Made by a program: the position numbers and the translations under genes. Shown here piece after piece: positions 20,687 to 22,436 of a DNA stretch of 64,000 bases (its first letter is position 1; the number at the start of each line of letters is the position of its first letter). Under the pieces are notes generated by a model. That model saw only the letters and a list, made by a program, of their open reading frames with translations. It was not told where the DNA came from and did not search any database. Origin of the DNA: a virus; IMG/VR virus record IMGVR_UViG_3300014205_000232, positions 675-64,674 of that record; one strand, 5' to 3'.

Positions 20687-21421
20687 ATGAGCAACGTGGA
20701 ATTGACAAAAAAACTGGCTGAGGTTGGTGCTTTGGGACAGGGCACCTTGGTGTTCCTCACCGTCAAGAAGAAGGGTGTCAAGCGAGCTGGTCAGATTTAC
20801 AATGATGACTTGACCCAAGTTTTGCTTTGGTCTGGTTTTCACTACCGAGCCCTGGTGCAAAGAAGCATGGACCAACTTGACATGTTGGACGACGGGACTC
20901 TACGTAGGAATCTGGCGGGTGACTTGATGCTGGCCGGGTTTGAGAACGTGAAGATGGACGACGTGACTTTGGCGGTGCAAAAGGTCAGGGAGTCTTTCCA
21001 GCGTGTCCTGCGAGACGCCAAAGACTCGGACCCCGAGGATGAGTCCCCCCGAATGGAGGGATCCGTCTTTCAACCCTATGTGGTCAACGGGCAGGAGGTC
21101 CGTGGGGCTAAGGTGTACATGGGCAAGGGTGGGCCAGACCCCCGGAGTCCAGTTCCCGGGACAGTTTACCTGGACGGAGTCAAGTTGGGAGAACACTGCC
21201 TCTCAGAGGTTGAGAAGTGGTCCCCGCTCTCAAAAGGACTCACCATTGCCAAGACCATGTTGAAGTCCTACCTCCCGATTGGGTTGTACGCTCGCTATGC
21301 CCTGGACGAGAGCAGCCTCCGTTCCCTCTATGTGGGGAAAGAGGCTGCCGAGAAAGTGAGGGAGACTCCGATCGCTATCAACCCTGACGCGATCCGACTC
21401 CTTTTCAAAATAGCTCCGTGA
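20687..21421 (+). CDS. hypothetical protein, paralog A of an inverted pair
   Basis: Start at Met18 after box-B element and GGAGG; alignable with the 23011..23679 product (KKG..K..G..Y.ND...V.L.SGF.Y..LVQ.S..LD). Confidence 0.5.
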   Translation: MSNVELTKKLAEVGALGQGTLVFLTVKKKGVKRAGQIYNDDLTQVLLWSGFHYRALVQRSMDQLDMLDDGTLRRNLAGDLMLAGFENVKMDDVTLAVQKVRESFQRVLRDAKDSDPEDESPRMEGSVFQPYVVNGQEVRGAKVYMGKGGPDPRSPVPGTVYLDGVKLGEHCLSEVEKWSPLSKGLTIAKTMLKSYLPIGLYARYALDESSLRSLYVGKEAAEKVRETPIAINPDAIRLLFKIAP

Positions 21422-22001
21422 GCGGGTCCTCCTCGTCGGGAAACCCAAACCAACCCAGCTTGAAAGCCTCGAGATCGTCCTCGGTGTGCAAGACCATGAT
21501 GACGATCTCGAGGCTTCCCCAGTCTTCTTTTTCAGCCAGAACGCTTTGCATGATTCTGGCCCAGGTCATGACGTTGCCACCGTACACCCCGCAGGAGATC
21601 GCGGGGAAAGCAATGCTCTGAAGCAACATGCTTTGAGCCATGGCCAGGCAATTTCGGGCCGCCTCCGCGAGGAGCAGATCTGCTTGCAACGTGGTGTGTT
21701 GCAACTCCCCCACGAAGACTGGCGGTCTCCCTTGTGGGTACATGGGTCCTACCGTGTGCAAGACCCACTTGGCGGGGAGGTTGTACCCCTGTGTGACCCG
21801 AACTTGCCCCACTGGGCAACGAACTCCGTCGACCTCGGCAGGGAAAGCCATACACTCGGCAAGCAGGTCTGGACCCGCTGCCCTATGAATGGCTCCGTCA
21901 ACGCCACCACCCCCACGAAGGGTTGGATTGGCGGCATTGACGATGGCGTCAACGTTGAGGGTGGTGATGTCGGCCAGGACTTGACCTACCTGAACGGGCA
22001 T
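21405..22001 (-). CDS. macro-domain protein (MacroD/YmdB-like ADP-ribose-binding hydrolase)
   Basis: DITTLNVDAIVNAANPTLRGGGGVDGAIHRAAG and downstream GxYG region are the canonical macro-domain motifs. Confidence 0.85.
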   Translation of the reverse strand: MPVQVGQVLADITTLNVDAIVNAANPTLRGGGGVDGAIHRAAGPDLLAECMAFPAEVDGVRCPVGQVRVTQGYNLPAKWVLHTVGPMYPQGRPPVFVGELQHTTLQADLLLAEAARNCLAMAQSMLLQSIAFPAISCGVYGGNVMTWARIMQSVLAEKEDWGSLEIVIMVLHTEDDLEAFKLGWFGFPDEEDPLTELF

Positions 22002-22003
22002 GG

Positions 22004-22372
22004 CTAACGCCTTGGCTTGTAGAGTTGATCGATTGCAGCATTCATTCGAGGCCGGGCCACAATGTTGTAGCTGTGGACCTGCATGGTCTTGGGCAAAGGG
22101 TAGCTCTGGTCCAAGTGCTGTTGCTCAGCCATCCAGGTGAGCACATGGTACCCAGTGACCTCGTTGCCCTCGGCATCGTAGTCAGCAAGGTCGTGGTCAA
22201 GGGAGAAGATCTCGATCTCTCCCTTGTGCTGCTCCAGAAACTCAATGCAACGACGGTAGGTACGGACCACATACCAACGGATGTTGTGCTTGAAGTCGTA
22301 CCAGTAGCCCTCGGGGGCATCCCCGGTGTCTCCGGGACATCCCCGCACGTCGTCGAGGTAGAGATTAATCAT
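22004..22372 (-). CDS. small receiver-fold (CheY-like, possibly 'cyclic-phosphate processing receiver'-type) protein
   Basis: MINLYLDDVR...SLDHDL...TGYHVLTWMAEQ pattern; 2-nt gap to the macro gene; own promoter motif and AAGGAGG RBS. Confidence 0.55.
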   Translation of the reverse strand: MINLYLDDVRGCPGDTGDAPEGYWYDFKHNIRWYVVRTYRRCIEFLEQHKGEIEIFSLDHDLADYDAEGNEVTGYHVLTWMAEQQHLDQSYPLPKTMQVHSYNIVARPRMNAAIDQLYKPRR

Positions 22373-22399
22373 TGTGGATCCTCCTTTTTGTTTCCTCTG

Positions 22400-22436
22400 C
22401 TACACAACAGCTACTCCAGAGGGGCCTCAGATGATC
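22400..22436 (-). promoter_or_regulatory. promoter-like motif for the receiver-fold/macro operon
   Basis: Reverse complement reads gatcatctgaggcccctctggagtagctgttgtgtag, then AAGGAGG and ATG. Confidence 0.55.

Follow-up and report, generated by a model that had tools for sequence, protein, structure and literature searches.

Do a small receiver-fold protein and a macro domain encoded side by side in a viral genome act one after the other on a common substrate, and if so, on which? The question was raised by the first-pass annotation of this DNA, which had read the two genes as a possible two-step nucleotide or RNA-end processing module and had placed a second receiver-fold paralog at 33151..33486. 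We inspected the window, by which we mean the whole 64-kb stretch analysed, and 10 kb beyond its left end, together 74 kb of a 97.7-kb metagenomic contig, whose first 64 kb the window represents in reverse complement. The two genes, their surroundings and the paralog are as follows:

20636..21421, plus strand: 261-aa ORF ending ...LFKIAP, convergent with Macro and the second of two bracketing paralogs (244 aa if started at the ATG at 20687)
21405..22001, minus strand: Macro, a MacroD-type macro domain of 198 aa (Pfam PF01661, E=3e-34)
22004..22372, minus strand: cREC1, a divergent receiver-fold protein of 122 aa (Pfam PF20274)
22380..22386, minus strand: Shine-Dalgarno sequence AAGGAGG, 7 nt before the cREC1 start codon (read from the sequence)
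22411..22435, minus strand: promoter-like motif, GATCATCTG-N11-GAGTAGCTGT, for the cREC1-Macro operon (pattern search)
22411..23001, minus strand: 196-aa protein with an N-terminal hydrophobic (membrane) segment (hydropathy, BLASTP)
23011..23736, minus strand: 241-aa protein of CxCxxC type, the first bracketing paralog (phmmer)
33151..33486, plus strand: cREC2, a diverged paralog of 111 aa (Pfam PF20274, E=2.5e-13, 51 bits against a cut-off of 27)

Pfam assigns cREC1 to cREC_REC (PF20274, 'cyclic-phosphate processing receiver domain') with 76.3 bits against a cut-off of 27, and cREC2 likewise scores far above this threshold. The predicted structure of cREC1, a high-confidence model, adopts a receiver-like (Rossmannoid) fold of four strands and three helices that ends after strand 4 and helix 4. 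The receiver fold and 'CPR-like' family that had been tentatively proposed for the small proteins were thus correct, because Pfam puts both of them in cREC_REC and their partner in Macro, and the coordinates bear out the placement of a 122-aa protein 2 nt upstream of the macro-domain gene. Both cREC1 and cREC2 also match PHROG 1479, a family of unknown function. Starting with MINLYLDDVRG and continuing through SLDHDL and TGYHVLTWM, cREC1 carries the full set of residues conserved in the family alignment (D7, D8, R10, S57, D59, H60, D61, T73, G74, H100 and N103), including all of those that are family-specific beyond the receiver-site aspartates, namely R, S-x-D-H-D, T-G and H-S-x-N. When the alignment was mapped onto the model, these conserved residues all fell at the C-terminal ends of strands 1, 3 and 4. 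In receiver domains, the C-terminal strand ends form the phosphoryl-binding site, and the acidic pocket is kept in the cREC1 model, with DD after strand 1 and D59-H60-D61 after strand 3. While cREC1 shares the conserved residues of the cREC family, an insert of ~20 residues between strands 1 and 2 is a feature of its own. In keeping with the family, these are stand-alone phage proteins of ~110-120 aa, located beside an ADP-ribose-processing gene and not beside a histidine kinase.

Relatives of cREC1 were obtained by a full HMMER scan, which gave a family of 558 representative clusters with the single-sequence query and 2,342 proteins with a profile query; a word-indexed protein search with cREC1 as the sole query returned nothing except cREC1, and a PDB sequence search found no solved relative. 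Matches to cultured phages by tblastn were at most 34% identical and were all annotated 'hypothetical'. No Pfam match to the CheY-like receiver family PF00072 was obtained for cREC1. Relative to CheY-like receivers, cREC1 is without helix 1, strand 5, helix 5 and the conserved Lys, has an extra His and Asp behind the central Asp (DHD), and is not paired with a kinase. A canonical response-regulator receiver was therefore rejected as an identity for cREC1, which has neither a PF00072 match nor the strand-5 Lys and alpha4-beta5-alpha5 output face. In phosphatases of the HAD superfamily, whose active-site geometry is like that of receivers, a DxD motif provides the nucleophile and the general acid/base. 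By analogy only, D59-H60-D61 of cREC1, at its presumed nucleophile, resembles this Asp-x-Asp pair, although it lies after strand 3 rather than strand 1 and cREC1 has no cap domain and no homology to HAD proteins.

The macro domain claimed for the neighbouring gene was also confirmed, as Macro scores 118 bits against PF01661 (cut-off 22) and has its catalytic motifs NAAN, GGGGVDGAIH and CGVYGG intact. MacroD-type membership was defined by the motifs N-x6-GG[VLI]D-G-x-[IL]H and G-[VIA]-[YF]-G, both of which are present, and VNAANPTLRGGGGVDGAIH and SCGVYGG of Macro align with the same motifs in Oceanobacillus MacroD. This protein, E. coli YmdB and human MacroD1/2 are its best relatives in the PDB, with E values from 1e-30 to 1e-27. 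Macro shares all catalytic motifs with MacroD/YmdB/Af1521-type enzymes and differs from them by an insert of ~15 residues (PQGRPPVFVGELQHT) and a short acidic C-terminal tail; against the NCBIfam O-acetyl-ADP-ribose deacetylase models it scores below the equivalog cut-offs (160 vs 200 bits). Macro is expected to be active as a hydrolase of ADP-ribose esters or of ADP-ribose-1''-phosphate.

On the minus strand, 2 nt lie between the cREC1 stop codon (22004-22006) and the ATG of Macro (22001). The motif at 22411..22435, which falls within the final codons of the membrane-protein gene upstream and ends 39 nt ahead of the cREC1 ATG, follows a consensus for this phage of GATCATCTG-N11-GAGTAGCTGT...GTAG. 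A pattern search of the window for ATCATC-N10-16-AGTAG returned 17 copies, where 0.11 were expected; every copy (17/17) faces a gene on the same strand, and 14/17 end 6-39 nt before the start codon of that gene. The same motif also stands ahead of a PARP-like gene (25838..25862) and of the NAD+ ligase gene. As Macro has no motif copy of its own, cREC1 and Macro form one operon. The first pass had given each gene its own copy of a conserved promoter; the motif is real, but a single copy serves cREC1-Macro and none belongs to Macro alone. We found no convincing sigma-70 promoter or intrinsic terminator for the cREC1-Macro operon, and the 3' end of Macro overlaps that of the convergent 261-aa ORF by 17 nt.

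The second receiver-fold paralog was confirmed by its cREC_REC score and by pairwise alignment with cREC1 (35% identity, E=2e-18). cREC2 retains D6, D7, S, D59, T/G and H100, and is substituted at the near-invariant residues H60 (to Y), D61 (to S) and N103 (to H); no close relative of it was found in IMG/VR. The nearest copy of the motif precedes a different gene, which ends 2 nt before cREC2, making cREC2 the second gene of an operon:

32770..32794, plus strand: promoter-like motif of the cREC2 operon (pattern search)
32826..33149, plus strand: 107-aa protein, first gene of the cREC2 operon, with no family match

We surveyed 66 non-redundant IMG/VR and 77 non-redundant cellular-genome cREC loci, plus further loci of the cREC1 subclade. 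Among the 66 IMG/VR loci, a macro domain lay near cREC only in L005/L006, which are the closest relatives of cREC1 (51-58% identity). With the subclade loci included, the arrangements are:

Window, L005/L006 and L174 (50-58% identity to cREC1): cREC, then directly Macro
L169 and L175 (37% for L169): Macro behind a 241-like gene, on the other strand, ~2.6 kb away
L057 and L176 (38-40%): Macro missing from the module
L172/L173 (52%): no Macro; PNK-phosphatase and Apyc1-like genes 3-5 kb away

Where Macro follows directly, the spacing is a 2-nt gap in the window, a gap of ~50 nt in L005/L006 and a 4-nt overlap in L174. The conserved linkage that the earlier reading called for is therefore partly borne out, being direct in L005/L006 and L174 and looser in L169/L175, but it is absent from L057, L176 and L172. 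In the wider set, no Macro was found near cREC at ~62 other non-redundant viral loci and no MacroD-type gene within 6 kb of cREC at the 77 cellular loci, ~140 other loci altogether. Macro is not an obligate partner of cREC.

The gene content of the phage bears on what the pair might act on. Genes for ADP-ribose metabolism are spread through the window:

10039..11019, plus strand: ADP-ribosylglycohydrolase, ARH (Pfam PF03747, E=2e-27)
25886..27529, plus strand: ADP-ribosyltransferase with WGR and PARP-catalytic domains (Pfam PARP E=4e-14, WGR E=1e-4)
44443..45498: second WGR protein

In the 10 kb beyond the left end, Pfam identified a second PARP-domain gene, a primase and PolA with an intein, and in the window a thymidine kinase and a deoxynucleoside kinase; ThyX, NAD+ ligase, PhoH and ClpP were named by eye from translations. 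Such a set of genes suggests a large tailed phage, and the IMG/VR contigs that carry relatives range from 125 to 435 kb.

The reading that we favour, tentatively, is that cREC1 and Macro are a co-transcribed and probably translationally coupled NAD+/ADP-ribose enzyme pair, in which cREC1 would act as a phosphoesterase on an ADP-ribose derivative or an RNA end, at a phosphate that is either cyclic or terminal, and the MacroD enzyme would finish the reaction. cREC1 lacks the signalling half of a response regulator, and we infer that it works by an aspartyl-phosphate-type mechanism. Its substrate would be a phosphate ester that it either opens or removes, most probably a cyclic phosphate such as ADP-ribose 1'',2''-cyclic phosphate or the 2',3'-cyclic end of an RNA; whatever ADP-ribose-linked group remained would next be taken off by the MacroD-type enzyme, for example by converting ADP-ribose-1''-phosphate to ADP-ribose. 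In yeast, the 2H cyclic phosphodiesterase Cpd1 and the macro-domain protein Poa1 clear ADP-ribose 1'',2''-cyclic phosphate, a by-product of tRNA splicing (summarised in PMC9503650). A cREC-Macro pair would likewise join a cyclic-phosphate opener to a macro-domain phosphatase, although cREC is structurally unrelated to 2H proteins, its activity is a predicted one, and KptA/Tpt1 was not found in the 74 kb inspected.

Several lines of evidence argue for this enzyme pair: the Pfam matches, the receiver-fold model and the pocket residues at its strand ends; the nearest relatives of Macro, which are active MacroD/YmdB enzymes, and its complete motifs; the single motif, strong Shine-Dalgarno sequence and 2-nt gap, with direct linkage in relatives of 50-58% identity; and a genome rich in ADP-ribose genes (two PARP-like genes, ARH, a WGR protein and, by eye, NAD+ ligase). 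The neighbours of cREC at other loci are also in its favour. Within two genes of viral cREC we counted RNA ligases (3), calcineurin-like phosphoesterases (5), PNK-like kinases (2) and NT5C (4), with CCA-adding enzyme and Thg1 also present, and SIR2 was an immediate neighbour at cellular loci at least 3 times among the 25 of 82 families listed; these are raw counts without a background control, and in kind they agree with the published contexts (PMC7824862, PMC9503650). Against the enzyme pair stand the failure to find an RNA ligase, RtcB or KptA/Tpt1 in the 74 kb inspected, KptA/Tpt1 being to our knowledge the only source of ADP-ribose cyclic phosphate, and the dispensability of Macro, including the lack of any cREC-Macro fusion among the ten longest of the best 150 homologs. 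Those ten likewise included no cREC-Nudix fusion; one was a fusion of cREC to Endonuclease VII and the others were cREC only. The model also leaves unexplained the one lineage-invariant partner of cREC, the membrane protein.

Iyer, Anantharaman, Krishnan, Burroughs and Aravind defined the cREC family in 2021 from computational analysis, predicting a cyclic-phosphate/ADPr-derivative esterase and reporting its linkage to genes for Macro, Nudix, sirtuin and RNA-ligase proteins (PMC7824862), and in 2022 cRECs were called 'experimentally uncharacterized' (PMC9503650); our literature search found no later study testing cREC activity. The literature puts the share of jumbo phages with cREC at up to 18%. 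The two families, their association with each other and the proposed mechanism have all been published before (PMC7824862, sections 3.4.8-3.4.9; PMC9503650, section 3.4.5), and the two-step processing proposed in the first pass is essentially the prediction made for the cREC family in those papers.

The main rival, which we regard as possible but doubtful, is that cREC and Macro do independent jobs and that their adjacency is an accident of the lineage within a shared ADP-ribose 'island'. Macro would then reverse protein or nucleic-acid ADP-ribosylation, either the products of the phage's PARP-like enzymes or those of host defence ADP-ribosyltransferases, and cREC would act with the membrane protein on a different target. 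It is indeed the membrane protein, and not Macro, that is invariant beside cREC. Homologs of the 196-aa protein directly adjoin cREC in L006, L057, L169, L175 and L176 (pairwise BLASTP E values of 3e-3 to 1e-23, and 5e-84 for the near-identical L169 and L175), and cREC abuts this protein in 6/6 lineage loci with the bracketed module, the truncated L174 and the L172/L173 type excluded. Proteins of this family have ~200-250 aa, one or two N-terminal hydrophobic helices, a conserved WP and C-terminal Cys/Asp/Trp motifs. The displacement of Macro behind the 241-like gene in L169/L175 and its absence from L057/L176 are also as independent jobs would have it, as are the breadth of MacroD enzymes as de-ADP-ribosylases and the PARP-like and ARH genes of this genome. 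Moreover, phage macro domains acting alone have been published as counter-defence against DarT (PMC11825919, PMC13309987). Independent jobs are harder to reconcile with the tight cREC-Macro coupling that persists in three relatives despite divergence to 50-58% identity, and with the separated genes of other loci, which still lie within ~3 kb in the same bracketed module.

Less likely is an RNA-end healing module, in which host anticodon nucleases or ribotoxins would leave 2',3'-cyclic phosphate ends for cREC to open, a HAD_SAK phosphatase and a PNK-like kinase would complete the healing, and Macro would clear ADP-ribose-phosphate by-products or RNA ADP-ribose caps. We think it unlikely, yet candidate components are present in the window, where all ORFs of at least 70 aa were scanned with Pfam for repair genes:

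13409..15892: 827-aa protein with a PNK-like P-loop
19835..20524: truncated class-I release factor of 229 aa, 0.9 kb from the Macro gene
36693..37268, plus strand: HAD_SAK_2 phosphatase ('Swiss Army Knife' RNA-repair HAD; Pfam PF18143, E=1e-21), 3.2 kb downstream of cREC2

The RNA ligase, PNK, CCA-adding enzyme, Thg1 and calcineurin-like neighbours of other cREC loci fit such a module too, as do the RlaP, NYN and HAD_SAK genes near members of the bracketing family. However, the repair-type genes lie 8-15 kb from cREC1, outside its operon; a 2H gene was missing along with RNA ligase, RtcB and KptA from the 74 kb inspected, and tRNA and Rfam scans of the window gave no matches. The release factor reaches 82 bits on the PrfH model TIGR03072 (cut-off 167) and is a better match to RF1. 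A linkage to RtcB or PrfH, as anticipated in the first pass, was not borne out in the window, where no RtcB was found and the release factor is below the PrfH threshold.

A further explanation, which we consider more unlikely still, is that the functional unit of the lineage is an undescribed module in which a paralog pair brackets the membrane protein and cREC, with Macro optional; it would serve as a membrane-associated counter-defence against NAD+/ADP-ribose or RNA damage, with cREC as the catalytic core. The 241-aa and 261-aa paralogs are related at a phmmer E value of ~1e-21, and types of both bracket the unit in all four loci that have both flanks (the window, L006, L057 and L169, in the last three of which the 241-aa protein has orthologs); L175 and L176, each cut at an end, have one confirmed bracketing paralog apiece. 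Among all fetched loci, profiles of the membrane-protein and bracketing families match only this lineage. The 241-aa protein has no Pfam or PHROG match, and the bracketing family comprises ~205 unannotated members on contigs of up to 536 kb. Its AF2 model is confident (pLDDT 89), and a structure search with it gave no convincing match. On other jumbo-size contigs, some members adjoin HAD_SAK_2, ARH, CoaE, NYN, RlaP or Macro genes, and with such neighbours the module could be a counter-defence system of this kind. The membrane protein and the 241/261 paralog pair are specific to the lineage and are not among the cREC contexts described in the cited sections of the published accounts. This module and the degenerate cREC2 are the only elements that we did not find described in the literature.

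A phage histidine kinase does exist in the window:

45511..48577: histidine kinase (46314..48122) and two canonical response regulators, named by eye from translations (their L169 orthologs carry Pfam HisKA/HATPase_c and Response_reg)

That cREC is a true phospho-acceptor receiver or a phosphate sink for this kinase, and not a hydrolase, is nevertheless very improbable: the fold and acidic pocket are of receiver type and a WGR-RR-HK cluster lies 1-4 kb from cREC in L169 and L057, but the cREC1 model lacks strand 5, the conserved Lys and the alpha4-beta5-alpha5 output face, hhalign of the cREC profile with the phage's own response regulator is insignificant (E=0.42), the kinase of the window is >22 kb from cREC1, and a family-wide linkage to histidine kinases was seen neither in PMC7824862 nor at the loci surveyed here.

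Returning to the NAD+/ADP-ribose enzyme pair, the genomic observation alone adds little beyond what the authors of the family described. cREC is a widespread family named after a predicted activity, and this locus offers a clean, minimal test case in which a cREC with complete residues is probably translationally coupled to a canonical MacroD enzyme, with the naturally degenerate cREC2 of the same genome as a potential internal control. The substrate of cREC1 would bear on a five-year-old prediction and on whether it serves phages in countering NAD+/ADPr-based immunity or in RNA repair. Among cultured phages, none has DNA near-identical to the window; at the locus of Aeromonas phage CC2, cREC adjoins a tRNA nucleotidyltransferase and an HD phosphohydrolase.

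The receiver-like gene cREC is directly adjoined by homologs of a 196-aa protein in all six loci of the lineage that bear the bracketed cREC module, and this protein is a more constant partner of cREC than is Macro. The protein and the other features considered here lie in the window unless stated otherwise:

22411..23001, minus strand: protein of 196 aa whose N-terminus bears a hydrophobic helix
22411..22435 (minus), 25838..25862 (plus), 32770..32794 (plus), 52825..52848 (plus): example sites of the promoter-like motif
25886..27529, plus strand: WGR and PARP-catalytic protein
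L085 1..706, on the same contig just outside the left end of the window: second PARP-domain gene
36693..37268, plus strand: HAD_SAK_2 'Swiss Army Knife' RNA-repair phosphatase
13409..15892, plus strand: 827-aa protein with a PNK-like P-loop kinase segment
44443..48577, plus strand: phage-encoded cluster of a WGR protein, a response regulator, a PAS histidine kinase and a second response regulator
19835..20524, minus strand: truncated class-I release factor of 229 aa with a GGQ motif

No family match was found for the 196-aa protein. Its homologs contain WP and C-terminal C..D..W motifs. The closest relatives of cREC1 (L006 5812..6459 and L174 358..834) carry an N-terminal CxxC...CxxC zinc-ribbon extension, which cREC1 itself lacks. 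In the paralog cREC2 (33151..33486, plus strand), three near-invariant family residues are gone (H60 to Y, D61 to S and N103 to H), and no close relative of it was found in IMG/VR; this paralog may have degenerated or taken on a different role.

A phage-specific promoter-like motif, GATCATCTG-N11-GAGTAGCTGT...GTAG, which shows no likeness to the sigma-70 consensus, was found in 17 copies across the whole window versus 0.11 expected. All 17 copies are correctly oriented, and the distance from the end of the motif to the downstream start codon is 6-39 nt in 14 of them. Among the genes preceded by a copy are the NAD+ ligase gene and that for the PARP-like protein. Inspection of the WGR and PARP-catalytic protein by eye revealed the expected PARP motifs, with His, Tyr and Glu in QHGTRS, GYGTYTA and NDEHVVF, respectively. 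It is unusual for a single phage to carry two PARP-like genes.

No accompanying RNA ligase was detected for the HAD_SAK_2 phosphatase and the PNK-like segment, and no RtcB accompanies the release factor, which scored 189 bits against the C-terminal two-thirds of RF1 versus 82 bits against PrfH (cut-off 167). An ortholog with 55% identity occurs in the same neighbourhood of the related locus L169. The divergent intergenic region between the release factor gene and the 261-aa gene contains a perfect 27-bp tandem repeat (GGAACACCAAGGTTCCCTCGATAGGAG; 2.1 copies, 20544..20601), each copy of which includes a TTCCCTC/GAGGGAA hairpin.

The cluster with the histidine kinase lies more than 22 kb from cREC1 in the window, but only 1-4 kb from cREC in L169 (cluster 1..3225) and L057 (cluster 8600..11557).

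Approximately 6 kb of the window (about 12041..18165), also present in the ENA contig, is missing from the copy of this phage in an NCBI MAG (L002 5850..7092). This stretch encodes DUF4419, 76-aa, 827-aa PNK-like and 758-aa proteins, the last without a family match. The proteins compared between the window and the MAG copy are identical or nearly so. Apart from this indel polymorphism, the assemblies are near-identical. Just outside the window, a LAGLIDADG domain splits the PolA region of a DNA polymerase A gene (L085 1840..6090) into two halves, suggesting that this gene contains an intein.
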